Shown here piece after piece: positions 128-45,141 of a stretch of DNA of 45,141 nucleotides; the stretch's first letter is position 1, and the number at the start of each line of letters is the position of its first letter. Where the stretch lies: IMG/VR virus record IMGVR_UViG_3300025598_000063; one strand, 5' to 3'. A program made the position numbers and the translations under genes. The DNA comes from a virus. The notes beneath the pieces are model-generated. The model did no database searches and was not told the origin of the DNA. It saw only the letters and a list, made by a program, of their open reading frames with translations.

Positions 128-668
128 TGGATAACTTGTGCTCTTGATCGTGAATCACATTGCTTACCAAGATAGGCAATGCAACCAACGCCTTTTTGAT
201 TCGAGTGCGCTCTTCGATCTTATCCACGGCTTGGCTACCACCGGGAGGAATACTGGTTGCCCAACCTTGAAAGTTTCGCAAAGTATCGTTGATCGCTGTC
301 TCGCGGTGTAATTGAATGATGTTCTGGCTTGCCAAAATACGTCGATCCAGTTCTTTTTTGAAAGCAGGAGCATATTTGTCTAATGTAGACTTATTGATAC
401 CTTTATGGCGTTTTAAAGCACCTTTTTGCGTAATTAACCGCTTATATGTGCCATTTAATGCAGATTTTGTGTCTTTTTCGAGCTTTATTGGGCTTTTTAC
501 CGTTTTTTCAGCGGATTCTTTCAGTATCTTCACCCATCTTTTTAGATCGGTTTCGCTCGTATAGCCTTGTTCTTGATAGTGATTGATTGCCAACATGAGT
601 AAGGCAAGAAACAATAATTCGTCTTTCTTGTCCTTCTTCTTTTCGTCAATCTTCTTTTGATCAATCAT
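1..668 (-). CDS. Head morphogenesis / minor capsid protein (Mu gpF / SPP1 gp7-like), 5' part; continues across the circular junction into 45014..44834 (282 aa in total)
   Basis: ATG at 668..666 overlaps the portal stop (ATGA). Hand translation of this frame is open down to base 1 and is the same frame as ORF 44834..45127. It lies directly after the portal gene. Confidence 0.7.
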   Translation of the reverse strand, partial: MIDQKKIDEKKKDKKDELLFLALLMLAINHYQEQGYTSETDLKRWVKILKESAEKTVKSPIKLEKDTKSALNGTYKRLITQKGALKRHKGINKSTLDKYAPAFKKELDRRILASQNIIQLHRETAINDTLRNFQGWATSIPPGGSQAVDKIEERTRIKKALVALPILVSNVIHDQEHKLSTVIHELIAEKGGAIAMVWHSMWRLPGYNYRPDHKEKDEQVYL

Positions 669-2071
669 CGGGCTGCGGGTAACTTCGATTCGGCTTCATC
701 CGGCGGCACATAAGTCTGCATGGATTCAATATCCAATTCCATGTCTTGCGCAAACATTGTACCCATCTCATTCAAGTTATCTTGCGCCCACTGGAACATC
801 CGCGCACGATTCTCAGGATCAGCAATCGGCAGTAGAGTACGCAAAATCTCGGTCATGCCCTTCAACTTAATCTCATCCACTTTCACTGCATCGCTGGCTT
901 TCTCTTCATTCAAATCAGGCCAGACAAAAGACATTCCGTTAAACCAATCATAGAATGCTGCTTCGTAAGACATTGATCCATACGATTCAGGATACTCGTT
1001 CTGACAGGCATCAAAGAATTCCCGCGTCCATGCACGGTGCGCCACGACTTTATTGAGCTTCTCATACAGCGGTTCCATCTGCTTACGGATATCACTGATA
1101 TAGCGCATCAGTTCAGCGGCATCTTCGGTTCCTTCAGCCATCCCGGTAGACATGGTTTCTTGCGTCAAATACCGTGCGGGCATATCCACCGCAGCAGCGA
1201 TGTCCTCCAGAATGTTACGTCTACTGGCGGTCAACGCTTCATTGACGTTATTCAAGTCAATGGCTTCAATGTCTTCATCGGTATCAATCGACAGAATATT
1301 GTCCGTACCGCCTTGTTGCAGAATAGATCGTTTGTATCCGGTAGCCTTTGCCATCATGTTGCTGACAATGGAACCCGCTTGCTTGATCTTCGCCACAATC
1401 AACCCGGCTTTCCGCGCCACCATCGCATCGGTTTGCATCACCAACAAATAGGATCGCAGCGGATAAATCGCCCGCTGGTACACCGAGCGACCGTTGAAAC
1501 CAAAGCCCGCTGAGTTGAACGCCAAGTAAACCGGGAATTCATTCAACATCACCAATGAATTCGCTCTGGCATACGGCTGCCCCGCACCGGTAATCCCATC
1601 CGTCTTGCCTTGAAAGTCAATCGCATTGGGGTTCTGATTCAACACCATCGACCCCGCCAAGTTCAGCGCATCAAAGGTATGAATAAACAAATCTAAGTTC
1701 TGGTACTCCCACGGATCAATTGGCTTATCAGTGGGATGACCCCGCGCACCAATCACCATCGCTGCCACGCCATACACCCTTGATTGCGTCATGGTCGCAA
1801 AGATGTGGTTATCACACGCCAATGCCTTCCACTCGCGCTCAAATGCCTCGCGCAACATCACTTCCGGCCCACGGGCAAACTTAATCTCGCGCGACTTCGA
1901 CATCGCCAACTTCAATGGCCCGGCAGCAATCCGGTAGCCAAGCGGATGATATAAAAACACATCTTTGGCTAATTGATAGCCAGCATTGGTTCCCCATTCA
2001 ATCGTGTCTTGCTCCAACAACTGCTGAAGCTGATTATTGAGGCCCATATTGGAAAGGCTGACATAACTCAT
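665..2071 (-). CDS. Portal protein
   Basis: 468-aa ORF between terL and the MuF-like gene, tightly coupled on both sides. Size and position are typical of a portal; I could not verify a diagnostic motif by eye. Confidence 0.7.
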   Translation of the reverse strand: MSYVSLSNMGLNNQLQQLLEQDTIEWGTNAGYQLAKDVFLYHPLGYRIAAGPLKLAMSKSREIKFARGPEVMLREAFEREWKALACDNHIFATMTQSRVYGVAAMVIGARGHPTDKPIDPWEYQNLDLFIHTFDALNLAGSMVLNQNPNAIDFQGKTDGITGAGQPYARANSLVMLNEFPVYLAFNSAGFGFNGRSVYQRAIYPLRSYLLVMQTDAMVARKAGLIVAKIKQAGSIVSNMMAKATGYKRSILQQGGTDNILSIDTDEDIEAIDLNNVNEALTASRRNILEDIAAAVDMPARYLTQETMSTGMAEGTEDAAELMRYISDIRKQMEPLYEKLNKVVAHRAWTREFFDACQNEYPESYGSMSYEAAFYDWFNGMSFVWPDLNEEKASDAVKVDEIKLKGMTEILRTLLPIADPENRARMFQWAQDNLNEMGTMFAQDMELDIESMQTYVPPDEAESKLPAAR

Positions 2072-2072
2072 T

Positions 2073-3356
2073 TTATATTGCCCTGTTATCAGTTAAGGAT
2101 AATGCTACACCATAAGTAAAGGTGTCCAATAAGTCATCAGCACGTTTATATGCCTCTTTATCCCCAATTCTAAACGTAGTCACTTGCTGAAGGAAATGAT
2201 TCATCGTCCTGCCTTTCCACACAATCGTCTTTTCAAAGGCATGACGGCTGACCTTACAATCCCCCGCGTGAGCCGGGCCACCCGCTGCCATCGCTCGCTC
2301 GTCCTTACCCTTCGCCATCAACTTAGAATCAATCGCGTGAAAAGGCCATGCTCTCGCTTTCGCCCATTGCAGCAACACACTCCCACCCGCTGCATCTTCA
2401 ACAAACACACCTAAACTCCCATTCCGCGCAGATGTAGCCTTCGCCAATTCTTCGCACCGCTCTAATATCAACGGAGCCAAATACTCTAAACTGGCTGCCT
2501 CGATCGCAAACGCATCGTAGTCCAACACAACCAACTTATGCCCAAAGTGACGATTCACCGCAAAGTACATCACCGCTGTCGCGTCATTCTCACTACCACT
2601 CTTCACCGCACAGTCCATTACCGCAAAGACCGCATCACACTTCTCAGGGTAATCAACCGGCTGCTCGTCAACCAAGAAGTACTCCAACTTGAAGAACGTA
2701 CTATTTGACCAAGATATAAACTCAGCCAAAAACTCCTGCTGAAACACTAGCGGATGATTACTCTTCTCTTCTTTCGCCAACTCGTCCTGCGGCACATACG
2801 GATTCGATGCTGTCGGCGCATGGTGAAACTTGAACTCCAAATCGGGATCACGACATATTTGAAAAAAGAAATTTTCTTGATCCACGCCGTTTGGTGTTGA
2901 AAACATCCAAGCATGACCCTTGGTCGTCAACATCGTGGGCTTAATCGACTTCTTCCAAATATCCATCATCTGCGCATTTTTCGAGAACGCCATCTCATCA
3001 CCCAATACCAAGTGATATTCGCGTCCACGACCCGCCAATTCATTGTCGGTCAAATACCAGAAATCCAAATGCCCACCATTGATGGTGCGAATGATCCCGT
3101 CATTCTTACTGGAATTGCGCGTGACAGGCTTCAACATCGCCGCCAACTCTTCATACGGTTCAAATAACTGACGGTGCTCAGGTGCGAATATACCGACTTT
3201 GCGACCCTGTAAAGCATACTGCGCAGCCAATGTGACCAAGAACTTAGTCTTGCCCCATCGCCGTCCACAACACACCGCATTCAGTCTGCCACGGTTCTTC
3301 CACAGATTAGCCTGACCCCTGTGGAAAACCGGTGGATCAATCTGGATTGTCGTCAT
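2073..3356 (-). CDS. terL: Terminase large subunit
   Basis: 427 aa with a Walker A-like CCGRRWGKTKF near the N-terminus. The C-terminal half has nuclease-type acidic motifs (AVMDCAVKSGSENDATAV). It overlaps the terS end by 20 nt. Confidence 0.88.
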   Translation of the reverse strand: MTTIQIDPPVFHRGQANLWKNRGRLNAVCCGRRWGKTKFLVTLAAQYALQGRKVGIFAPEHRQLFEPYEELAAMLKPVTRNSSKNDGIIRTINGGHLDFWYLTDNELAGRGREYHLVLGDEMAFSKNAQMMDIWKKSIKPTMLTTKGHAWMFSTPNGVDQENFFFQICRDPDLEFKFHHAPTASNPYVPQDELAKEEKSNHPLVFQQEFLAEFISWSNSTFFKLEYFLVDEQPVDYPEKCDAVFAVMDCAVKSGSENDATAVMYFAVNRHFGHKLVVLDYDAFAIEAASLEYLAPLILERCEELAKATSARNGSLGVFVEDAAGGSVLLQWAKARAWPFHAIDSKLMAKGKDERAMAAGGPAHAGDCKVSRHAFEKTIVWKGRTMNHFLQQVTTFRIGDKEAYKRADDLLDTFTYGVALSLTDNRAI

Positions 3357-3714
3357 CTAGCGGCAGCGCACCCTTAACCTCAATCACCAACTTATTGTTC
3401 CCATCATCCGTTTCACGCCATCGCCCACGCGTCTTTAAAAAGAACATCGTGCTGGCAGGTATCTGCATGACCGTGGCTTGATGATACAAAGCGTTTGCCA
3501 CATTCATCACCGCGTTAATGTGACCGTCTTCCAAGTCATCCTTGTAATGCTTAACCAATGTCTCATGCGTAATTCCTAGCCTACGGGCAATGTGCTCATG
3601 CGTAATGCCAAAGGCAGACAAGTCACGGACGGTCTGCCGTGTTTGTTCAGTCGGCTTGTGTGAAGGCCGACCAGTTTTCTTTTTACCTTTAGAATCAACG
3701 GGTTGTGCGCTCAT
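3337..3714 (-). CDS. terS: Terminase small subunit (HTH type)
   Basis: 125 aa with a basic N-terminus and an HTH (FGITHEHIARRLGITHETLVKHY). It has an FFLKTRGRWRE motif as in many small terminases and is the first gene of the late block. Confidence 0.7.
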   Translation of the reverse strand: MSAQPVDSKGKKKTGRPSHKPTEQTRQTVRDLSAFGITHEHIARRLGITHETLVKHYKDDLEDGHINAVMNVANALYHQATVMQIPASTMFFLKTRGRWRETDDGNNKLVIEVKGALPLDDDNPD

Positions 3715-7389: not shown

Positions 7390-8136
7390 TCAAAAAAGAA
7401 AATTTTGTTGCGTTAAATTCTTACTCCAAAATGTAAGCGATTGATTCACTTCAATTCGTTCTCTAATCACCATCGCTCTTACATCTTTAGAAGCAGGTGT
7501 TCGCGATCCCTTCCAATTTGAATCAATGCCAACATTCTTTGCGATGTTAGTTGAATCAGCACTGCTGAAAGGTAATCTTGAAAACACATCCGGGTTCAAC
7601 ATTCGTAAACCATGTAACTTGCAAATGGGGTTTCCATTTTTGTCACAGATTGCATTCATAGCTTCCACAATTCTATTCCACCATGCTTCATTATTTACCA
7701 CTGCATATTGCCCACTTGAACCAAGACATACTCTAGGCCATTCAAGTGCCAAATTAAATAGTCGATCAATAGATTCATGTAGATGCCAAACTGGTGCTCC
7801 TACCCATTTGTTTTTCGGTTCTTTCCAAGGCCATTCTTTAAGTAAGTCATCGTTATCTTTTTCATTCCCATCGATAACATCTGGAATAACAGCAAAATCA
7901 AATGATGGATATCGATGAAGTTCTCCAATCCATGAATAATAATTCGACCAATCTTCTAATGGCTTACCGCTCTTCCATGCAGAGAACGCTCCATTATCCA
8001 CAGCAAAAGATTGGCATACTTCCAACACTAAAGATAATTGTTGCGGATAACGAAATGAAACGAATGCGTGACCCGATTTAACTGCATTAAATGCCGCTGA
8101 TGCAGGAGTAATTGGTAAACCATGATAATGAATCAT
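7390..8136 (-). CDS. Hypothetical 248-aa protein; possibly a TGT-fold / DpdA-like DNA-modifying enzyme (tentative)
   Basis: AGAGGG RBS. The motifs MIHYHGLPITP, VDNGAFSAW, KLHGLRML and SSADSTNIA remind me of the DpdA / tRNA-guanine transglycosylase-like family. Not verifiable without a profile search. Confidence 0.6.
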   Translation of the reverse strand: MIHYHGLPITPASAAFNAVKSGHAFVSFRYPQQLSLVLEVCQSFAVDNGAFSAWKSGKPLEDWSNYYSWIGELHRYPSFDFAVIPDVIDGNEKDNDDLLKEWPWKEPKNKWVGAPVWHLHESIDRLFNLALEWPRVCLGSSGQYAVVNNEAWWNRIVEAMNAICDKNGNPICKLHGLRMLNPDVFSRLPFSSADSTNIAKNVGIDSNWKGSRTPASKDVRAMVIRERIEVNQSLTFWSKNLTQQNFLF

Positions 8137-14041: not shown

Positions 14042-14262
14042 AAGCAGATGATTTACAAATTGGCGGGGATCACTATAAGCAAATGGCGATCCAGCCGTGG
14101 GAAGTAATGGAATGTGTCTTATCAGAAGCCGAGTTTATCGGCTTCTTGAAAGGCAACATTATTAAATACTCGATGCGCGCTGGACACAAAGGCGATGCCA
14201 AGATTGATCTTGAGAAAGCCAAGCACTATCGCCAGAAACTTGCTGAGGTAATGGGAAAATGA
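14038..14262 (+). CDS. DUF3310-like small phage protein (74 aa)
   Basis: GGDHYK...QPWEVME...FLKGNIIKYSMRAGHKG...DLEKAKHY matches the DUF3310 pattern as I remember it. Confidence 0.6.
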   Translation: MKADDLQIGGDHYKQMAIQPWEVMECVLSEAEFIGFLKGNIIKYSMRAGHKGDAKIDLEKAKHYRQKLAEVMGK

Positions 14263-14438
14263 CATTTGAAGAATGGCATGCGATGAGATGTCTTTTATCA
14301 GAAGTCGAATTTATTGGCTTTTTGAAAGGCAATATCATCAAATATTCAATGCGCGCCGGACAAAACGGAGATCCCAAAATTGATCGTGAGCAAGTTAGAG
14401 ATTGTTGTAAAAAATTAAATCAGGTAATGGGCAAATGA
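14259..14438 (+). CDS. N-terminally truncated paralogue of the DUF3310-like gene (59 aa)
   Basis: Hand translation: MTFEEWHAMRCLLSEVEFIGFLKGNIIKYSMRAGQNGDPKIDREQVRDCCKKLNQVMGK. It is a tandem copy of 14100-14262 and lacks the GGDHY part. Confidence 0.55.
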   Translation: MTFEEWHAMRCLLSEVEFIGFLKGNIIKYSMRAGQNGDPKIDREQVRDCCKKLNQVMGK

Positions 14439-14475
14439 CATTTGAATATGGAGCCAAGCTGAAGGATAAGAACAC

Positions 14476-14935: not shown

Positions 14936-15169
14936 ATGCCTAAAAAACGAGAAATTGTTTCAGATAGTGCAGTAAATGTTTGGGTTACCGTTGGTAGCCA
15001 AGGCGTTTCATTGGAAGAAATTGCTCAATTTATTGAAGAAGAAATTGCTGAAAAGCAACGCTATGCAATGCACATAAGTTTGACTTCTCACCCGCCTCAA
15101 AATGGCACAGCAGTTGGAATTGCAAATCAAATCAGAACAAGAGGACAAGTAGAGGATAAAAACACATGA
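14936..15169 (+). CDS. Hypothetical protein (77 aa) ending ...QVEDKNT
   Basis: ORF track; GAGGAA RBS. Preceded by an AT-rich 59-nt gap with promoter-like hexamers. Confidence 0.6.
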   Translation: MPKKREIVSDSAVNVWVTVGSQGVSLEEIAQFIEEEIAEKQRYAMHISLTSHPPQNGTAVGIANQIRTRGQVEDKNT

Positions 15170-22799: not shown

Positions 22800-25700
22800 T
22801 TACATACGATAAGCAACAAACGTGTTTGCTGCGGTTTTGAGGAACTTAAATGTGCCAGAGGATGTTGCCGCTACAGTCGCAACACCTACGATTGTAACGC
22901 CTGTTGCTGCGGTTACTGTAGCCGTACCAGAACCAGTATTGACTACGGTAAATTGAAGTGCGGTATTAGTCGCAATAGAACCTGCTGCATCTATATTTGA
23001 ACCTGTATCAAACGTCAGAGCCGCAGCAGAACCGGTATATTGGATCATTCCGGTTTGCAAGATTGCTAGTGTTAAAGTTGCAGCAGCAGATTTAGACGTA
23101 AGGCTTAATGGTTGCCATGTAGCTTTACCAGAATCTATTACTTGGAGGACGTTACCGTCACCATCAGACATTACTAGATAGTTAGATGCTGTGCGAATGT
23201 CTAGGCCGCCATTGTTTCCTGTGTAACCACCAATAATAGTATTTTTAGAACCAGTTGTAATTGCACCACCAGCACCGCCTGATATACCAACATCAACACC
23301 AACAAAAGTATTTTGTGTTCCAGTTGTTGCGTTTACTCCTGCGCCATCACCAACATAAGTATTTTTTGCGCCAGTAGTATTTGAATAGCCAGCATAACCA
23401 CCTAAAAATGTGTTTTGTGCGCTTGTTGTATTTGCATAACCAGCCAAGTAACCAAAAGCAGTTAATCTTGCACCTGTAGTATTACTATATCCAGCTTGAT
23501 AACCTACTGCTGTGCTGTTGGAGGCGGTGGTGTTTGAAGATAAAGCACCTACCCCTACACCCACATTTGAACCACCAGTAGTGTTAGAAGCTAATGCACC
23601 AGATATTGATGTTGTAGTACCACCTAATGCAGTATTGGCTGTGCCAGTTGTATTTTGCAATAAAGCATTTGCACCATAAGCGGTGTTTTCGCCAGTAGTA
23701 TTTGCTATACCAGCTTGGAAACCTACAAAAGTGGAATAACTACCAGTAGTGTTATAGCCAGCTTGACAGCCAGCAAACATAATTCCTGTACCAGTAGTAT
23801 TACTATACCCAGCTTGATACCCAACTGCTGTATTGTAAGATGCGGTGGTGTTGGATAAAAGGGCTTGTCGGCCAACGGCTGTGTTTGAATGGCCACTTGT
23901 GTTGCTAGTCAATGCAACAGTTCCGATTGCAGTGTTAGTTGCCCCTGTATTTACAAGTAAAGCCTGATAACCAAACGCAGTATTTTCTGAAGCCGTAGTA
24001 TTTGCGGCAAGAGCTTGATAACCAAAGGCAGTTGAGTAAGCGCCACTCGTATTAGCCGCCAAAGCACTAGCACCCACCGCAGTATTGCTTGAAACAGCAC
24101 CAGCACCCTTACCCACCGTCAGACCGCTAATAGATACGTCATTAGCTACTGTAAGGGTTGTGCCGTTAAATGTCAGGTTAGCCGAAGCTGTCTCTAACCC
24201 ACCTGTTGTAGTGTAGACAACACGCCCAGAGGTCAAGCCTGAGTTAGTGATAGAAGTGGCATTAACAGTACCGCCGGATTGGTTGGTCGCTGTGGTAGCA
24301 GTTGCAGCATTACCTCCGATAGACAATCCAGAAGCCGTACCCGTAATGTTAGTTCCAACCAATGCGCTAGGTGTACCCAATGCTGGTGTCACCAATGTTG
24401 GTGAAGTTGCCAACACCACATTACCTGTACCCGTACTGGACGTTAAAGTTGGTGCTTGAGCAGCCGATCCAGTTCCTGTTGAAGTAACAAATTGTGGTGT
24501 TGTAGTCGTATTGCCAGATAAGAAAGCGGTTGTAGAAGGTGCAGATTGATATTGAATTGCACCTGTTGTGCCGCTTGCTACGTTCGTTGCAGTTGTAGCA
24601 GTTCCTGCTGTGGCTACGTTTAAATTAGCAACTTGAGTCGTGCTTGAAACCACAAATGGAGCCGTTCCAGTTGAAACTGTACTTGTGATCTGACCTGACG
24701 CACTGACCGTGCTAAACGCTCCGGTAGTGGGAGTGGTTGCTCCAACTGTGCCGTTAATATTAATAGATGCAGTTCCGGTAAGGTTTGTAACCGTTCCGCT
24801 CGCCGGGGTTCCTAATGCTCCGTTGTAGAGTACAACTGCGCCCGCTGATCCGGTGTTAACTGCTAGAGCCGTTGCAACACCAGTACCAAGACCAGAAACG
24901 CCAGTTGATATTGGTAAACCCGTTGCATTAGTTAAAGTTGCAGAACTTGGGGTTCCTAATGCTGGTGTAACTAATGTTGGGCTTGTTGCTAATACTACGT
25001 TACCCGATCCTGTCGAACTGGTTAGCGTGGGGGCTTGTGCAGCCGATCCTGTACCTGTAGATGTATAGAAATTCGGTGTGGTAGACGTGTTGCCCGCTAA
25101 GAAAGTAGTCGTACCCGAACCCGATTGATAAGGCACTGAGCCATTAGCACCACCGGCTAAGTTAGTCGTAGTACCAATCACCAATGAAGATTGTGCCGTC
25201 CACTGCGGCGCAGTACCGCTCGATGTCAGCACATAGCCAGATGTACCAATCGTTAAAGCATTGAATGCAGAAGTGCCATTACCATAAGGCAATGCACCCG
25301 CAGCCAATGTAGTAATTCCCGTACCACCACGATTAACAGCAACAGTCGATCCATTCCATGTCGCAGAAGTAATCGAACCAGCATAATCCAATGTGTTGCT
25401 TGACCAAGAAACATTAGAAGGTGCTAGGTCGTGACGATCCCATGTTCCCGCAGCAGTTGCATTTGTAAGCAATACAACATTCGTATACGCACCAGAAGCC
25501 ACGGATACCACTAATGTATTTGAATTGTTGTTTACAGTAATCGCACCACTGGTTTGATTATTGTTAAACGAAAAAATCGCGCCATTCGGCAGCGTAGTTG
25601 CATCGGGCAACTTAATAACCTGTCCACCTGATCCGGTAACGGTATAAACAGGTGTCGATGAAGCCAATAATGTAATCTGTGTTCCTGATGCAGCAACACT

Positions 25701-26321
25701 TGTATAACCAGCAAAGAATGCGTTTGCAGTTATGTTTGCATTTGCATCGCGTAATACGTTTGAACTTGCACCTGTACTAACAGTGACACCAGAACCACCC
25801 GCAGAAACAGGCAGCGTTCCGGTAGTCAAAGCCGATGTGCTGGTCGCGTACACCGCACCACCGCTTGTAAAGGATGTCAGTCCTGTACCGCCATAACCCG
25901 TACCCAACGTACCGCCAAGCGTAATCGCGCCGGTCGTGGCTGAATTGGGTGTCAACCCTGTGCTGCCTCCGCTAAAGGAAGAAACCAAGGTTGAAGATAT
26001 TGTGGCCCATGTCGGAGAGCCAGTGCCGCCACTCACCAAATACTGCCCCGATGTTCCGGCGGCAGTATAGGCGGTGGTTCCGGTAGCACTTTGGTATACA
26101 ACTGTTCCCGCTGCGCCACCGGGCAAATTTCCCGCTGCGGTTGATGCAGAAGCTAATTTAGTAACCGTGCCACTACCGTTCTTGTAGAACAGAATGCCAT
26201 CAGCGTAATTGATCGCTAACTCTGCACCAGCAGAACTATTGGTCATATTAGAAGCTGAAGGCGTGTTACCAGTAGTACCACTGCCGTAAATTAGAATTTT
26301 GCTATAACCGGACTGAGCCAT
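22800..26321 (-). CDS. Large tail fibre / adhesin-like protein (1173 aa)
   Basis: Gly/Thr/Ser/Ala-rich. It shares the N-terminal motif (SGY..I.(L/I)Y...TG.TPSASN...ELA(I/L)N.ADGILFYK) and the GYGGTGLTSFTSGGAVYA module with the 671-aa protein. Residues ~735-1035 are periodic NT-A-x-G repeats. Confidence 0.8.
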   Translation of the reverse strand: MAQSGYSKILIYGSGTTGNTPSASNMTNSSAGAELAINYADGILFYKNGSGTVTKLASASTAAGNLPGGAAGTVVYQSATGTTAYTAAGTSGQYLVSGGTGSPTWATISSTLVSSFSGGSTGLTPNSATTGAITLGGTLGTGYGGTGLTSFTSGGAVYATSTSALTTGTLPVSAGGSGVTVSTGASSNVLRDANANITANAFFAGYTSVAASGTQITLLASSTPVYTVTGSGGQVIKLPDATTLPNGAIFSFNNNQTSGAITVNNNSNTLVVSVASGAYTNVVLLTNATAAGTWDRHDLAPSNVSWSSNTLDYAGSITSATWNGSTVAVNRGGTGITTLAAGALPYGNGTSAFNALTIGTSGYVLTSSGTAPQWTAQSSLVIGTTTNLAGGANGSVPYQSGSGTTTFLAGNTSTTPNFYTSTGTGSAAQAPTLTSSTGSGNVVLATSPTLVTPALGTPSSATLTNATGLPISTGVSGLGTGVATALAVNTGSAGAVVLYNGALGTPASGTVTNLTGTASININGTVGATTPTTGAFSTVSASGQITSTVSTGTAPFVVSSTTQVANLNVATAGTATTATNVASGTTGAIQYQSAPSTTAFLSGNTTTTPQFVTSTGTGSAAQAPTLTSSTGTGNVVLATSPTLVTPALGTPSALVGTNITGTASGLSIGGNAATATTATNQSGGTVNATSITNSGLTSGRVVYTTTGGLETASANLTFNGTTLTVANDVSISGLTVGKGAGAVSSNTAVGASALAANTSGAYSTAFGYQALAANTTASENTAFGYQALLVNTGATNTAIGTVALTSNTSGHSNTAVGRQALLSNTTASYNTAVGYQAGYSNTTGTGIMFAGCQAGYNTTGSYSTFVGFQAGIANTTGENTAYGANALLQNTTGTANTALGGTTTSISGALASNTTGGSNVGVGVGALSSNTTASNSTAVGYQAGYSNTTGARLTAFGYLAGYANTTSAQNTFLGGYAGYSNTTGAKNTYVGDGAGVNATTGTQNTFVGVDVGISGGAGGAITTGSKNTIIGGYTGNNGGLDIRTASNYLVMSDGDGNVLQVIDSGKATWQPLSLTSKSAAATLTLAILQTGMIQYTGSAAALTFDTGSNIDAAGSIATNTALQFTVVNTGSGTATVTAATGVTIVGVATVAATSSGTFKFLKTAANTFVAYRM

Positions 26322-40688: not shown

Positions 40689-41720
40689 TTAAGCGTAAAA
40701 CGCGCTTAAAACGGTCAGTGCTTCTGGACGTAGTACCCAACCTGAGGTAGCTCTCATGGTGTACAAAACAGTCAATGCTGCATCAGGCAAGGGAGTAGGA
40801 ATCTCAGTAGGAGCAGCCACGTCAATCAACATCAAGCTAGTTGCTGTGGTGTTCGGTGTGAGAGTTGCAAAAATGTTGGTGTTGATTTGGTTGTTGGCTT
40901 TAGGAATCTTGATCTCAGGTGCAATCAAAAGAATCGCATCTGAACCGCCAGCACCTTGACCAATCAGGGTATCGTCTACTGCAAAGGATACATCGTCACC
41001 GCCCGCCCATTGAGCAACGGTTTCGATTACACCAGCAGCAGTCTCAACACCTGCACCAATACGTTGGAATTGAGTCAACTGCACAATACCGCCGTAAGAC
41101 AACTGGCTAATTACGCGCTGGGGAGCCAAGAACACTAAACGCAGGGGCTGACCAATTTGCAGAGTACGAACCTTCAAACCACCAATCAAGTTCAAGAAGA
41201 ACTGTGCAAGTTGACCGGAATCCCATGTTGACAGTGTGGTGTTGCCATTGCTGTCAGCAGGAAGGGTTACGGTGGTCGCGCCCGCAGTGTTCAACAGACC
41301 TTCACCAGAATTGGCGTTGTTGAAACCATACAACAGTGCATTACGCATCTGCTGCGCAATACCTTGACGTGCAGCTAAACGCATCGCTTCGGGCAAGGAG
41401 AAACCCCAATGTCCAGCAGCAGTCTCATCAAAACCGTCATACTGCGCACGGGTTTGAATACGATAGGTAGGGGTGCTGATCATGTTGGGGATCACCGTTG
41501 CACTTGGCAATTGGTTTACGGTGGATTGATTTGCAGAAACTTGAGTGGTCAATTGCATTTTTTTGGCATACACATAAAGATCGCCAGTTCCCAAGCGGGT
41601 CATGGGTTTCTCAGTTGCCAAGGTAGTGAATGCGCCGGATGCCAATGAATACTGAATGATGAACTCAGGCATCATAAAGTGAGGATTGGCGGTAATAAAA
41701 CTGGGTGCGAATGCTGACAT
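40689..41720 (-). CDS. Major capsid protein candidate (343 aa)
   Basis: Position after the scaffold-like gene, typical size, and a strong terminator directly downstream. Confidence 0.65.
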   Translation of the reverse strand: MSAFAPSFITANPHFMMPEFIIQYSLASGAFTTLATEKPMTRLGTGDLYVYAKKMQLTTQVSANQSTVNQLPSATVIPNMISTPTYRIQTRAQYDGFDETAAGHWGFSLPEAMRLAARQGIAQQMRNALLYGFNNANSGEGLLNTAGATTVTLPADSNGNTTLSTWDSGQLAQFFLNLIGGLKVRTLQIGQPLRLVFLAPQRVISQLSYGGIVQLTQFQRIGAGVETAAGVIETVAQWAGGDDVSFAVDDTLIGQGAGGSDAILLIAPEIKIPKANNQINTNIFATLTPNTTATSLMLIDVAAPTEIPTPLPDAALTVLYTMRATSGWVLRPEALTVLSAFYA

Positions 41721-41742: not shown

Positions 41743-42357
41743 TTAGATTAGGCAAAGAGCCACATATTCATTGGTTGCCCAATTCGCATTACCCGTTCCA
41801 GAGTTATACGAAACCGTTCTGTTGTTCGATACGCTGATACGCAATACTTTCACAGGGAAAGCGTTTGTACCATCATAAGGAATCAACTCTTGTGCGGAGA
41901 AATCATAAGACACTTGCTGGGTAATTAAACCACCGTCTAAAGATACAAGGCTTGCTGAACAACGCAGGGGAATACGCGCACCAGAACCCAAGCGGTAGAA
42001 GTTCACTGACATACCGGGTGAGAATAAAGGTACATCAGACTGAGGTGTCGTAATACCACCATAAGCCTGATTGAATACGCAAATACCGGTGGTGTTTGCA
42101 TCGCTTGTAGCTTGCAACACAGTGCTACCCAATACGCCGGAACCGGGTACAGTAGACGCAGCAGGAATATCTTCAGAGATCGGCACACCGCCCCATAAAG
42201 GAGTGGTTGCAGAAGTTGAAAGTACGCCGCCTGATAAAGCAAACTTTACTGCGGGATCGTCCTGTGCATCACCTTGGGTGAAGCCATTGGAGTTGGTTTG
42301 AAACAGGCCAGCAGCATTGGTGACTGCCATCGGCTGAAGTGAAATAGATGCGCTCAT
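41743..42357 (-). CDS. Capsid-associated protein (decoration/cement or second shell protein candidate, 204 aa)
   Basis: Lies between the scaffold-like and major capsid genes. Gly/Ser/Thr-rich and beta-rich. Confidence 0.4.
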   Translation of the reverse strand: MSASISLQPMAVTNAAGLFQTNSNGFTQGDAQDDPAVKFALSGGVLSTSATTPLWGGVPISEDIPAASTVPGSGVLGSTVLQATSDANTTGICVFNQAYGGITTPQSDVPLFSPGMSVNFYRLGSGARIPLRCSASLVSLDGGLITQQVSYDFSAQELIPYDGTNAFPVKVLRISVSNNRTVSYNSGTGNANWATNEYVALCLI

Positions 42358-42368
42358 GTTGGCAGTCC

Positions 42369-44795
42369 TTATTTACGGTTGTTTTGGGTGTTAAAGGCAA
42401 CAACACGCTGGGCGGGAACAGTGAAACTTTCCAGCCAAGAATTAACGTCACCCTTGAACTTGGTAATGGTACGACCAGCACGATCACGCTCTTCAATTGC
42501 GATCAAGTTGCCGCTACCAATCTGACTGTCATTGCGAGCCGCAGCATTCACTGCATCTGCAAAAATCTGTTTCTCAGCCAAAGCCAACAATGCCTTGTCT
42601 TTGATATTGCGTAAGTTGATGTCTTTGTAAGAATCTGAATGCGCTTGCAAACCACGCAACAGACGCTTGCGGTAAGCCATCAAACCTTCTCCCTGTAAAG
42701 GACGGCTGGCTGATTTGCCAAATGCGGAATAGATTGAATCGGCTTTTGCTTGTGCATCAGCCATCATCATTTCTTCTTCATCAGCCTTCTTCGCCATTTC
42801 CTCTTTCTCTTCATCGGAATAGCAATCGTCATCGTCATCAGGCTTCATTTCACCAGCGGGGCCATGCTCTTTAGGATCAGAACCCTCAGCATCTTTACGC
42901 TTCTTGTCACTAAACTTCATGTGTCCGGCTGGGCCTTCCATCATATTGTCTTTGCGCATATCTTCTTCGTCATCGTCCTTGCGCATCTTGTCGTCATCAT
43001 CGTCTTTGCGCTTCTTACGATCAGCCGCCATCATTTCTTCGTCCATGCGGTCATCATCATCGTCTTTCTTGGCATCATCGCCACCACGGACGTAAGAACG
43101 TACCTTGTGCTTGGCTTCGTCATCTGCCTTACCAGCCGCAATGTGGGTTAGGGGTTCTTGGGGAAGATTCTTTTCCATAGCATCTACGCGAGCGGAGATA
43201 TTATGGATAGCATTCAGAATCGCATCCAGTTTGTCGCCTTGGGCATCTGCCTTGGCTTGGTTCATATCGGTCATATCAGACACCTCAGGATTGTTAAGAA
43301 GTACACCAGTGGCAGGGCCGCCCTTATCCCAAACACCTTTACTGCCTCTGCGTTTGGTGACAATGGCGATATGATCTAACAAAAATGGTTTTCCTTCAAT
43401 CAATAAAGGATCGCCACTCTCGGTGATCAAATTCCGATTACCCGAACGCTCGTCAAATACCACGCTTGGGCTTGTACTAATATCGCCCTCGCTGATTTCT
43501 TTCATTGCGTCCGAATCATAAACTTTGGCAATGCCCCATACTTCGTCATCACCGTGGAAATAGGGTAACAGAATACTGCCAATCGCCCTATCTTTGAATT
43601 CTTTGCTGTCCAAAATACTGCTGTCCGGGTGATCCATAATCACCGTCAGACCATTGCAACGCTGCAAGAAATCTTCGTTCATATACAAGGACTTGTCGCG
43701 CCAAACGTGTTCCTCAATGCTGGAACGATACGCTAAACCCGTACCCGTTATGCGAATCGCTAATAAGTGCATATTCGCAAAAGGCTGGGGGCTTGGCAAA
43801 ATGCCTTCAGCCATCAACCGTGCTACATCCAACTCGGTATCCGCAGCCGCAACCTTAAACGCATCAATGTCACCGGGATGTATCGGCATCGGCAGATGAT
43901 CAGGATCAGTCCAAACAAATCCATCAGATTCATAGTTTAGTTTGGGCGTAAACTTCGGCACAGGGTCAGCCGCATAGAACGCAATGAATTGTCCATTATC
44001 GTGTACAGGAATCAAATCGCCTTCATACATAAACCCTGTTTCTTCGAATACTTCGCGCCGCGCTCCCTCTTCAGCCGTTTCCGTACCATTCAAATGCCCA
44101 CCGGGGATCGCAAAATGATATGGAAAATCACCGCCATTTCCACGGCGCAACATCAATATCGTGCCATCCGGTGCTTCAAACATAATCCCCGCTGCACGGG
44201 TTGCTGCACCGCCTTGTGGCCCAATAGGGTAGGGGTTCGGGTGAATAATTCCCGATGGCTCAAAGTCGGACTTCGGCACACAGTTAGGCACTTGCTTGCC
44301 GCCTTTCTCTTTCATGCCGTATTGCTCGTAACCTTCCCAGCAGGGATCAGCATCTAGCATGGATTCGTCACACTTCCATTTGCGCAACGACTTATTAATT
44401 CGGCTGTCAGGATCATGCGCTGTCTTTTCGGAAGTCAACTTAGCCTTCATGCCTTTCATGCGAGCGCAGAATGATTTCTTTCTTGCCCCGCCTTCTGGCT
44501 GTGGACGCTTTAGATGTGCGCCATGCTCTTTATTGTAAGAAGCACGACCTTTTTCATTTAAACCACCTTCAGGATTCTTGCCTTCTTTCTTTGTCCACGC
44601 TTCCGCATCTTGTTTCATCTTGGACAATTCAGCGTATACGCCTTGCAATTCTTTATTCAAGGCTTTCATGTCATTACGCTTAGGAGATTTCCCCACAAAC
44701 TCGCATCCAACAGACTGTGGAACGCCACCAAACCCACCGGGAGTATGGCAAGCGGCTTGCATTAAACGCTCTTGAGCAGGGCTAGTTGTGGGCAT
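42369..44795 (-). CDS. 808-aa capsid-assembly polyprotein: basic N-terminus + Nudix hydrolase domain + DUF2213-like scaffold/protease-like region + Asp/Met/Lys-rich tract + helical C-terminus
   Basis: Perfect Nudix box G233-HLNGT-E-TAEEGAR-REVFEETGF255 (44031-44099). The stretch MHLLAIRITGTGLAYR...LTVIMDHPDS...EVWGIAKVYD resembles DUF2213. It occupies the scaffold/protease slot. Confidence 0.7.
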   Translation of the reverse strand: MPTTSPAQERLMQAACHTPGGFGGVPQSVGCEFVGKSPKRNDMKALNKELQGVYAELSKMKQDAEAWTKKEGKNPEGGLNEKGRASYNKEHGAHLKRPQPEGGARKKSFCARMKGMKAKLTSEKTAHDPDSRINKSLRKWKCDESMLDADPCWEGYEQYGMKEKGGKQVPNCVPKSDFEPSGIIHPNPYPIGPQGGAATRAAGIMFEAPDGTILMLRRGNGGDFPYHFAIPGGHLNGTETAEEGARREVFEETGFMYEGDLIPVHDNGQFIAFYAADPVPKFTPKLNYESDGFVWTDPDHLPMPIHPGDIDAFKVAAADTELDVARLMAEGILPSPQPFANMHLLAIRITGTGLAYRSSIEEHVWRDKSLYMNEDFLQRCNGLTVIMDHPDSSILDSKEFKDRAIGSILLPYFHGDDEVWGIAKVYDSDAMKEISEGDISTSPSVVFDERSGNRNLITESGDPLLIEGKPFLLDHIAIVTKRRGSKGVWDKGGPATGVLLNNPEVSDMTDMNQAKADAQGDKLDAILNAIHNISARVDAMEKNLPQEPLTHIAAGKADDEAKHKVRSYVRGGDDAKKDDDDDRMDEEMMAADRKKRKDDDDDKMRKDDDEEDMRKDNMMEGPAGHMKFSDKKRKDAEGSDPKEHGPAGEMKPDDDDDCYSDEEKEEMAKKADEEEMMMADAQAKADSIYSAFGKSASRPLQGEGLMAYRKRLLRGLQAHSDSYKDINLRNIKDKALLALAEKQIFADAVNAAARNDSQIGSGNLIAIEERDRAGRTITKFKGDVNSWLESFTVPAQRVVAFNTQNNRK

Positions 44796-44833: not shown

Positions 44834-45141
44834 TTATTTTGCTTTCTGTGCAATCCACTCTTGACCTTTGCTTGTCAAAAGCTCAGTTGGAAGATCAGTC
44901 ACATCGTATATCCATTCCGCAAAACACTTACAGTTCGGCAGCACTCCAACCGCTACGTCATTTTCGTAATATTCACCGGCAACCAATCCTTTTGCTCGCG
45001 CCCAACTATCTTTCAACAAATACACCTGTTCGTCTTTCTCTTTGTGGTCAGGACGGTAGTTATAGCCCGGCAGTCTCCACATTGAATGCCATACCATCGC
45101 AATCGCACCGCCTTTCTCGGCAATCAATTCATGGATGACTG
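44834..45141 (-). CDS. 3' part of the MuF-like head morphogenesis gene (unique part 44834..45014; 45015..45141 repeats 1..127)
   Basis: Same reading frame as 668..1 across the circular join. ...YRPDHKEKDEQVY...VGVLPNCKCFAEW resembles the MuF C-terminal motif (D..R..H ... P.C.C). Confidence 0.7.
   Translation of the reverse strand, partial: VIHELIAEKGGAIAMVWHSMWRLPGYNYRPDHKEKDEQVYLLKDSWARAKGLVAGEYYENDVAVGVLPNCKCFAEWIYDVTDLPTELLTSKGQEWIAQKAK
45015..45141. repeat. Terminal direct repeat, copy 2 of 2 (identical to 1..127)
   Basis: See copy 1. Confidence 0.9.

Follow-up and report, generated by a model that had tools for sequence, protein, structure and literature searches.

A composite phage gene joining a Nudix domain to a prohead protease-like domain and a probable nested scaffold module

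A single 808-aa ORF in a viral contig carries, in one chain, a Nudix hydrolase domain, a candidate prohead protease and a scaffold-like C-terminal module, and it is probably a composite head-assembly gene of a ~45-kb myovirus. We propose that the scaffold-like module is also translated alone from an internal start and that the Nudix domain is cargo for the capsid, a reading to which, taken as a whole, we assign a probability of roughly 0.6. The window analysed is the complete 45,141-nt stretch (IMG/VR record IMGVR_UViG_3300025598_000063); the ORF begins with ATG and its features are collected in Table 1. A PHROG 6216 match spans aa 199-803 of the 808 residues (E 3e-149), and three Pfam families, DUF6321, NUDIX and DUF2213, match above their curated cut-offs. 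The coordinates and length of the ORF agree with those in the first-pass annotation, which also held that the Nudix domain is covalently joined to head-assembly functions; the presence of protease and scaffold-like parts in the same ORF bears this out. That annotation had the ORF standing 'instead of' a protease or scaffold, a description that fails because both lie inside it, as a gp21-like fold and a scaffold-like segment of 301 aa.

Table 1. Positions of the composite gene, its parts and the neighbouring head genes in the window.
Feature	Position	Strand	Evidence or remark
Whole ORF, stop codon included	42369..44795	-	N-terminal modules, Nudix, candidate prohead protease, acidic linker, scaffold-like tail
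N-terminal motif MPTTSPAQERLMQAA... (aa 1-40), conserved	44676..44795	-	phrog_16759 match at aa 1-40
DUF6321 module (aa 72-140)	44376..44582	-	Pfam, 76.5 bits
Small two-cysteine motif DPCWEGYEQYGMKEKGGKQVPNCVP (within aa 150-176)	44268..44348	-	Direct reading
Nudix hydrolase domain (aa 199-306)	43878..44201	-	Pfam PF00293, E 1.1e-12
Nudix box GHLNGTETAEEGARREVFEETGF (aa 233-255)	44031..44099	-	Exact pattern match
Prohead protease-like domain (aa 311-500), DUF2213 match inside	43296..43865	-	AlphaFold, Foldseek, phrog_530, BFVD
His389 codon, candidate catalytic His	43629..43631	-	Invariant; motif DHP, cf. LNHP in T4 gp21
Ser442 codon, candidate catalytic Ser	43470..43472	-	Invariant; STSP
His475 codon, candidate third triad residue	43371..43373	-	Invariant; LLDH
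Internal Shine-Dalgarno-like GAGGTG	43281..43286	-	6 nt upstream of Met508 ATG
Nested in-frame scaffold-like ORF, Met508 to stop (301 aa)	42369..43274	-	Internal start; separate gene in split relatives
Asp/Glu/Lys/Met-rich low-complexity linker (aa 556-680)	42756..43130	-	Direct reading; two GPAG motifs
Basic C-terminal tail (aa 681-808)	42372..42755	-	Conserved; net charge +8
204-aa head-module gene	41743..42357	-	PHROG 6268; between scaffold and capsid gene
Major capsid protein	40689..41720	-	phrog_6671, phrog_264, weak PF09950
MuF-like head-morphogenesis gene, 3' part	44834..45141	-	phrog_324, E 1.4e-18
MuF-like gene, 5' part	128..668	-	ATG overlaps portal stop codon
Portal protein	665..2071	-	Phage_portal_3

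The Nudix domain is identified both by profile and by motif. The PF00293 match scores 48.6 bits against a cut-off of 21.1 and covers profile positions 3-124 of 134, and the domain also matches solved Nudix enzymes, AtNUDX1 being the best (E 4.7e-6); from this sequence similarity we infer an alpha/beta/alpha Nudix fold for aa 199-306. Residues ~196-305 had been put forward as Nudix with a textbook signature at aa 233-255, and both proposals stand, the signature lying exactly where it was placed. Across all six reading frames of the window, the pattern G-x5-E-x7-R-E-U-x-E-E-x-G-U has a single match. A chance motif is ruled out, with ~1.3e-6 matches expected from the ORF's own composition and none in 300 shuffled windows. 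Of 79 close relatives, 78 carry this domain. In principle, the fold could be a structural or binding module, for example a nucleotide sensor or a spacer, with no hydrolase role, and its shortness (~110 aa), its dispensability in 43% of representative clusters and the absence of an equivalog-level family match are compatible with such a role. We consider this very improbable, as the full REx2EExG signature and the upstream Gly and Glu are perfect here, and the catalytic residues are nearly invariant across 96 homologues, the motif being kept even where loops have been inserted. The NCBIfam search gave no equivalog near its cut-off (best MutT, 23 bits against 98), which leaves the Nudix subfamily, and therefore the substrate, unassignable by this route.

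The DUF2213-like segment that had been noticed after the Nudix domain is a Pfam match at aa 363-484 (26.2 bits, cut-off 22), and the domain around it, aa 311-500, is probably a T4-gp21-like prohead serine protease, as judged largely from a structure model. A first model, built from a low-diversity alignment, reached pLDDT 62 and gave weak PDB matches with herpesvirus assemblins and gp21 on top; a more diverse alignment raised the AlphaFold pLDDT for aa 311-500 to 94.7. In a Foldseek search of the PDB the three top matches were chains A-C of T4 gp21 (5jbl; E 2.2e-3 to 3.5e-3, prob 1.00, TM 0.43-0.51 over 166-168 columns), followed by a match at E 0.12. T4 gp21 is the sole convincing solved-structure match to the modelled domain, and we regard the Foldseek support as moderate. 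Many of the BFVD matches (E 1e-5 to 1e-3) are to annotated prohead proteases, and phrog_530, 'head maturation protease', matches the DUF2213 region (E 1.2e-7).

Three conserved positions suggest a catalytic triad consisting of His389, Ser442 and either His475 or Asp474, the latter adjacent to His475 and conserved in at least 90%. The contexts of the His and Ser resemble those in T4 gp21, with DHP here and NHP there, and the candidate His-Ser-His spacing is 53/33 compared with 55/28 in gp21; in a weak hhalign alignment with gp21, DHP is placed on NHP. The third residue of the gp21 triad is Asp (PMC5694885), whereas the third conserved residue here is His with an adjacent Asp. The DUF2213 domain has no detectable profile relation to Pfam S77/S78: a Pfam scan of the ORF found no S77/S78 or other peptidase match, a PDB profile search with the DUF2213 region returned nothing relevant, and hhalign of this region against single sequences of HK97 gp4 or T4 gp21 was not significant.

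The gene order is TerS, TerL, portal, MuF-like, the 808-aa ORF, a 204-aa gene and the major capsid gene, with the MuF-like gene (282 aa in all) crossing the window end of the circular contig. The protease-bearing ORF thus sits between the portal/MuF genes and the major capsid gene, as first described, but it does not directly adjoin the capsid gene, as the 204-aa gene intervenes. The order protease (gp21), scaffold (gp22), capsid in T4 is the same as here, and an internal start is annotated in T4 gene 21 as well; unlike gp21, the protease domain here is fused in frame to the scaffold-like module and carries N-terminal enzyme modules. A megablast search with 15 kb of the window found no near-identical cultured phage.

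The C-terminal 301 aa likely constitute a scaffold-like module with an internal start at Met508, as read from the sequence of this gene and its relatives. A GAGGTG-type site precedes Met508 in 53 of 55 distinct fused ORFs, compared with 2.6% of other internal ATGs, and the Glu codon within the site is always GAG, a codon that accounts for only 21% of Glu codons. Moreover, in 16 of 70 distinct related ORFs the scaffold module is a separate gene that starts at the same Met and is served by the same ribosome-binding site. Relative L004 has a separate scaffold gene, too; it encodes 308 aa, and its C-terminal 115 aa are 42% identical to the module here (E 4e-27). Because the C-terminal 301 aa have their own predicted internal start, two products are likely. 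Within the module, the linker at aa 556-680 contains 26% Asp, 13% Glu, 16% Lys and 10% Met, with GPAG occurring twice (EGPAGHMK at 621, HGPAGEMK at 645), so that both the composition and the duplicated motif reported in the first pass were found. The only helix in the C-terminal module, at aa 520-542, was predicted with low confidence in the first model (pLDDT 62). The basic tail that follows the linker is presumably the capsid-binding end of the scaffold; it matched none of the annotated scaffold families.

The existence of split relatives raises the question of whether the long ORF is an artefact in which two or three neighbouring genes, for Nudix, protease and scaffold, were joined by a sequencing or assembly frameshift. 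In the 16 split forms, protease and scaffold do lie in different frames, with a single-nucleotide offset at the junction, as this explanation would have it. It is nevertheless extremely improbable. In 52 of the 70 distinct related ORFs, drawn from many independent metagenomes, the form is the fused one, and completed genomes of cultured phages have it too; no relative shows a break between Nudix and protease; and an independent contig, L008, is 99% identical over a 201-aa protease-domain query, with an ORF of the same length and the same context around Met508. We reject misassembly because metagenomic proteins by the thousand, and cultured phages too, have the same Nudix-DUF2213 architecture.

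The predicted arrangement has precedents. In lambda C/Nu3 and Mu I/Z, a long product containing the protease has the same C-terminus as a shorter scaffold, whose translation begins in frame inside the ORF; this common end gives co-assembly and sets stoichiometry. The likeness here extends to an internal start and ribosome-binding site. The proteases differ in type, lambda C being of the ClpP/S49 type, so that homology in sequence is not to be expected, and we know of no N-terminal enzyme cargo on the lambda or Mu proteins. Also unlike lambda and Mu, the nested form here alternates with a two-gene form among close relatives.

Upstream of the Nudix domain, the N-terminal region is basic, as had been claimed, but it is modular rather than one piece, comprising an N-terminal motif, a DUF6321 module and a two-cysteine motif. 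Homologues share the start with the N-terminal motif, and 27 of the 70 distinct related ORFs begin MPxxSxAQ. The DUF6321 module is 68-75% identical to proteins of T4-like cyanophages and is optional among relatives, its motif appearing in 28 of 70; the two-cysteine motif, in the form DPCWxGY, appears in 38 of 70.

The Nudix domain is itself a variable module, as the comparison of homologues suggested in the first pass makes clear. Among 150 representative clusters, the N-terminus is a Nudix domain in 85 (57%) and is lacking altogether in 59, and other enzymes occupy the same position in some members, where an ADP-ribosyltransferase, a PBECR1 nuclease, a tail lysozyme or a GNAT domain lies N-terminal to DUF2213; two members combine Nudix with another N-terminal enzyme domain ahead of the protease. 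The first-pass annotation took the architecture to be unusual, but it is widespread and already sequenced in cultured phages, including Klebsiella phage Chronis and Pantoea phage PdC23. PHROG 6216 includes Klebsiella phage vB_Kpn_Chronis gp4, Pantoea phage PdC23 gp04, Yersinia vB_YenM phages and Shewanella vB_Sb_QDWS, which share the Nudix-DUF2213-tail organization at ~40% identity over aligned parts of aa 197-808. As here, these phages have terminase, portal, MuF-like, this gene, one further gene and capsid in that order; unlike here, their proteins lack the ~190-aa N-terminal extension with its N-terminal motif, DUF6321 and Cys motif. Their annotation goes no further than 'NUDIX hydrolase', the label used in Chronis and PdC23, 'glycosyl transferase' or hypothetical. 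The DUF2213+NUDIX Pfam architecture is merely listed in PMC8770471. Our literature searches on DUF2213, on Nudix with prohead protease, scaffold or virion, and on the cultured relatives found no functional or interpretive study, and a search for proteomic or biochemical data on any family member found none in the library covered.

The closest relatives of the Nudix domain among cultured phages are also in head proteins. Burkholderia phage Bcep781 gp17 is a portal with a C-terminal Nudix domain (40% identity, E 9e-15), and Arthrobacter phage Sonali gp3 is a portal-Nudix-MuF protein (34% identity, E 2e-5). Bcep781 shares the head-module type seen here, Phage_portal_3 plus DUF2213, but its DUF2213 protein (gp14), unlike the 808-aa ORF, has no Nudix. 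In both phages the Nudix domain is thus on the portal rather than the protease, and both carriers are head proteins of the capsid interior. BCSR129, for its part, encodes Nudix as a gene of its own, overlapping the MuF-like gene at the latter's end.

We propose the following model. The gene would give two products, the full-length 808-aa chain and a likely more abundant 301-aa scaffold from Met508, arranged as in lambda C/Nu3 and Mu I/Z. The scaffold part common to both would carry the protease and Nudix domains into the assembling procapsid, where the protease would then cleave the scaffold and linkers. The folded Nudix domain would remain in the head as cargo, exit with the DNA at the next infection and hydrolyse a nucleoside-diphosphate-X compound or an RNA 5' end ahead of phage gene expression. 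Being fused to a head protease and scaffold, the Nudix domain is probably loaded into the capsid, and co-assembly of the Nudix-bearing chain into procapsids is, in our view, more likely than not. Incorporation into the capsid, which had been suggested at the outset, is also supported by comparison, given the variable effector domains added at the same position and the Nudix-portal and Nudix-portal-MuF fusions. Retention of the domain and its ejection with an early function are a more tentative part of the model.

At maturation, scaffolds and prohead proteases are usually degraded or expelled, and the Nudix domain could therefore be lost from the head with them. It would then act only in the producing cell or procapsid and never reach the next host; its job there might be housekeeping in the cytoplasm late in infection, or control of the protease as a pro-domain. 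Consistent with this possibility, the Nudix-protease protein of split relatives has no scaffold tail and would need some other way into the procapsid, and the description of T4 has scaffolds and prohead proteases usually leaving the head (PMC5694885). We nonetheless think it unlikely that the Nudix domain works solely in the producing cell. First, the ADP-ribosyltransferase, PBECR1 nuclease and lysozyme domains found at the same position in relatives make sense mainly if delivered to a host. Second, portal proteins, to which related Nudix domains are attached, remain in the virion. Finally, a folded domain of ~13 kDa should, by our reasoning, not cross capsid pores.

Delivery from the capsid also has parallels in known systems. 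Effector domains fused to MuF or portal proteins are described as 'polyvalent proteins' and MuF toxins (Iyer et al. 2017, PMC5512222). Those systems resemble the family here in placing variable enzymes on a head-interior protein encoded in a late packaging module, and ADP-ribosyltransferase, PBECR1 nuclease and lysozyme domains are common to both. By contrast, the carrier here is a prohead protease-scaffold, with MuF and portal as separate upstream genes; a text search of PMC5512222 turned up a single mention of Nudix, in another context, and no account of a DUF2213 or prohead-protease carrier. T4 Alt and the internal proteins are, according to PMC5512222 and PMC5694885, incorporated in the scaffold core; the prohead protease processes them, and they remain in the head and are injected along with the DNA. 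They are separate proteins with a short cleavable N-terminal targeting peptide, whereas the proposed cargo here lies covalently within the protease-scaffold chain.

More broadly, Nudix hydrolases may be recurrent and so far unrecognised capsid-delivered phage enzymes, interchangeably attached to protease-scaffold, portal or MuF proteins and attacking a host nucleotide-derived molecule at DNA entry, an idea we advance with some reserve. Capsid-carried phage proteins such as T4 Alt, the internal proteins and the N4 virion RNA polymerase act before phage gene expression, and they influence both how the first minute of infection unfolds and how host defence turns out. If the Nudix domain is delivered in this way, its target might be an ADP-ribose-derived immune signal or, alternatively, an RNA 5' triphosphate or NAD cap, although we name these candidates with caution. 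Equally conjecturally, in some relatives it could act jointly with a co-fused ADP-ribosyltransferase. Because cultured members exist, the prediction of Nudix cargo is directly testable. If it is true, the widespread DUF2213 family gains a function, that of a prohead protease with a nested scaffold, and its proteins would be modular carriers of cargo enzymes. Nudix would then be common virion cargo in phages of Klebsiella, Yersinia, Pantoea and Burkholderia and in those of many uncultured freshwater and marine hosts, and the DUF2213 carrier could serve as a natural handle to load foreign proteins into capsids.

The most probable reading, at about 0.85, is that the 808-aa ORF is a composite gene that joins protease and scaffold and contains a nested start. 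Across alignments of diverse members, His389 (in DHP), Ser442 (STSP), His475 (LLDH) and several Arg residues of the DUF2213 region are invariant, and Asp474, beside His475 in LLDH, is conserved in at least 90%. An initial structural model rested on a shallow alignment and was poor (pLDDT 62); herpesvirus assemblins and T4 gp21 headed its PDB matches, and many of its BFVD matches were annotated prohead or capsid maturation proteases (E 1e-5 to 1e-3). A second model, covering residues 311–500 and drawing on 142 sequences of greater diversity, had a pLDDT of 94.7 and a pTM of 0.90. In the PDB it best matches the three T4 gp21 chains of 5JBL (E 2.2e-3 to 3.5e-3, probability 1.00, TM 0.43–0.51), with nearly the full 165-residue target aligned; the next match has an E value of 0.12. 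The protease domain alone matches phrog_530, ‘head maturation protease’ (E 1.2e-7). In gp21 the His lies in LNHP and the Ser 55 residues on, positions we take to be His85 and Ser140; the ORF protease has DHP and a His–Ser spacing of 53, and its His389 follows a beta strand, as in gp21. The gp21 triad is His-Ser-Asp (PMC5694885). Sequence-profile comparison connected DUF2213 neither with Pfam S77/S78 nor with any solved structure, and for this reason the assignment of the domain as a gp21-like prohead serine protease counts as well supported but not proven.

A Met conserved throughout the family, Met508 in the window, lies ~20 residues past the protease domain; its ATG (43272–43274) is preceded by GAGGTG at 43281–43286, with a 6-nt spacer. 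We compared relatives at 80 IMG/VR loci, which reduce to 70 distinct ORFs. Protease and tail are fused as in the window in 52 of the 70. In 16 others the protease ORF ends 16–19 residues after GVWDKGG, and an overlapping +1-frame gene starts at the Met508 equivalent behind GAGGT(G/A). A more distant relative, L004, also has a two-gene layout, with a 308-aa downstream product whose C-terminal 115 aa are 42% identical to the window tail (E 4e-27). Among the related loci L062–L087 (for example L063, at the protease stop; window 43272–43290), fused and split forms differ by a single-nucleotide frame offset, GAT ATG versus GAAAATGACTGA. In 53 of 55 distinct fused ORFs the conserved Met follows a Shine-Dalgarno-like match, as do only 32 of 1,223 (2.6%) ATGs elsewhere inside the ORFs. 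Glu within this match is always encoded by GAG, which accounts for only 21% of Glu codons, and GAGG is kept in the fused ORFs while adjoining amino acids vary. Phages PdC23, Chronis and Rac-SA53 carry GAGG or AGGTGA 7–8 nt upstream of the equivalent Met. On the most parsimonious reading the window ORF would yield two products, a full-length chain and a 301-aa scaffold. Such an arrangement resembles lambda C/Nu3 and Mu I/Z, in which a protease gene contains a nested scaffold, and T4, where the protease, scaffold and capsid genes follow in that order and gene 21 has an internal start. The first-pass annotation had placed the ORF where a scaffold or protease was expected; with a gp21-like fold and a nested scaffold-like gene identified inside it, neither is missing from the head module.

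The window begins and ends with the same 127 nt (1–127 and 45015–45141), which makes the contig circularly closed and the genome 45,014 bp long. The phage is a myovirus and has both a tail sheath and a baseplate.

Head-gene neighborhood of the composite ORF
Feature	Coordinates	Strand	Remark
TerS	3337-3714	-	
TerL	2073-3356	-	
Portal	665-2071	-	
MuF-like gene, 282 aa	44834-45141 + 128-668	-	upstream of the ORF; spans contig junction
Proposed composite ORF, 808 aa	42369-44795	-	
204-aa gene, PHROG 6268	41743-42357	-	between scaffold and capsid genes
Major capsid protein	40689-41720	-	

The 204-aa product, in which Gly, Ser, Thr and Val are abundant, has no Pfam match and could serve as a decoration or cement protein; the PdC23 gene in this position carries an ‘endosialidase’ annotation that seems doubtful. 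Elsewhere, an ORF at 7390–8136 strongly matches a queuine tRNA-ribosyltransferase-like family (phrog_887, E 7e-71), and the phage DNA might therefore carry 7-deazaguanine modifications. A 1173-aa tail-spike or fibre-like ORF (22800–26321) contains diverged direct repeats at 23351–23855 (reference units 62–72 nt, identity 61–83%, start-to-start spacings 51 to 318 nt). At 15145–15187/15291–15333 and 14098–14446 there are short direct repeats, each with a ribosome-binding site and start codon (ACAAGTAGAGGATAAAAACACATGACAC...), and a 173-nt tandem duplication, which point to duplication of small genes in the early region.

The Nudix signature reported in the first-pass annotation stands at its exact position: G-x5-E-x7-R-E-U-x-E-E-x-G-U matches once in the six-frame translation, at residues 233–255 (44031–44099), with no match in 300 shuffles and ~1.3e-6 expected from ORF composition. 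DUF6321 (residues 72–140), NUDIX (199–306; 48.6 bits against a cut-off of 21.1) and DUF2213 (363–484) all exceed curated Pfam cut-offs. The ORF also matches solved Nudix enzymes, best AtNUDX1 (E 4.7e-6), and the catalytic motif is nearly invariant across 96 homologues; relatives failing the strict pattern retain it intact, loop insertions aside. The best NCBIfam equivalogs for this domain fall far below their cut-offs and so point to no particular substrate. The acidic Met-rich tract and duplicated GPAG motif are present as first described. Within this low-complexity linker, DAEGS-x-P-x-x-HG-x-AGE(I/M)KPDDD (42800–42870, residues ~640–665) is conserved in the ORF and homologues, possibly as a site of protease cleavage or of capsid binding. 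The DUF6321 module (44376–44582) shares 68–75% identity with proteins of T4-like cyanophages of Synechococcus and Prochlorococcus, far above the similarity of the remaining ORF to any cultured phage; several PHROG families have it at the C-terminus of proteins that are otherwise unrelated, and it resembles a mobile module.

The window is not unique, because its sequence family is already represented in databases and cultured phages. Residues 199–803 match PHROG 6216, ‘unknown function’ (E 3e-149). Klebsiella phages Chronis, RothC and RothD and Pantoea phage PdC23 encode a Nudix-DUF2213-tail protein of ~40% identity at the same genomic position, as do five Yersinia vB_YenM phages and Shewanella vB_Sb_QDWS; these proteins are annotated as ‘NUDIX hydrolase’, ‘glycosyl transferase’ or hypothetical. 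In E. coli Rac-SA53 and an Actinobacillus phage the family protein lacks the Nudix part. A large protein collection yielded 2,884 matches at E <= 1e-10; PF00293 is combined with PF09979 in almost all of the best 120. With the DUF2213 region alone as query, 793 clusters (50% identity level) were found at E <= 0.001; among the best 150, Nudix lies ahead of DUF2213 in 85 and the protein starts directly with DUF2213 in 59. The Nudix domain is thus a frequent but optional N-terminal addition, a variable module as the first reading had raised. A 2022 paper gives the DUF2213+NUDIX Pfam architecture uninterpreted (PMC8770471), and our literature search found no published interpretation of the Nudix-protease-scaffold architecture.

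The Nudix domain is probably capsid cargo. Nudix, protease and scaffold are translated as one chain, and the Nudix–protease junction is split in none of 79 relatives. Its incorporation into procapsids is reasonably likely; that it is kept in virions and acts early in the next host is a tentative proposal, toward which we lean slightly negative. Scaffolds and proteases are normally removed at head maturation, and for that reason the domain could be destroyed or lost at this step; the split relatives, whose Nudix-protease lacks the scaffold tail, also count against its entry into the procapsid. A literature search found no virion proteomics or enzymology for any family member. Other enzymes ahead of the protease in relatives include ADP-ribosyltransferase plus Nudix (P0182, P0217), a PBECR1 nuclease (P0213), a tail lysozyme (P0269) and a GNAT, all of a kind known or proposed for delivery with phage DNA. 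The ADP-ribosyltransferase–Nudix pairing hints at common NAD/ADP-ribose-related chemistry. A 1567-aa relative, P0148, has ribonucleotide-reductase-like segments upstream of Nudix-DUF2213 and may be a gene-calling fusion or unusually large cargo. Such domain types have been described fused to MuF and portal proteins, with packaging predicted (Iyer et al. 2017, PMC5512222), and T4 Alt is an experimental precedent for a packaged, delivered enzyme (PMC5512222).

The arrangement proposed here is mechanistically like the loading of Alt and internal proteins via the T4 scaffold core, and like MuF- and portal-fused effectors. It differs from both in that the carrier is the prohead protease-scaffold chain and the usual cargo is a Nudix hydrolase. 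The nearest Nudix relatives among cultured phages are located in head proteins: in Bcep781, whose DUF2213 protein has no Nudix, the Phage_portal_3 portal gp17 carries one at its C-terminus, and gp3 of Arthrobacter phage Sonali is portal-Nudix-MuF. Stand-alone Nudix genes overlap the end of a MuF-like gene in BCSR129 and lie within the structural cluster of Ralstonia phage PQ43W. Because relatives occur in portal, portal-MuF and protease-scaffold chains, the domain moves between capsid-interior carriers, a distribution that suggests selection on the location of the Nudix domain rather than on its fusion partner.
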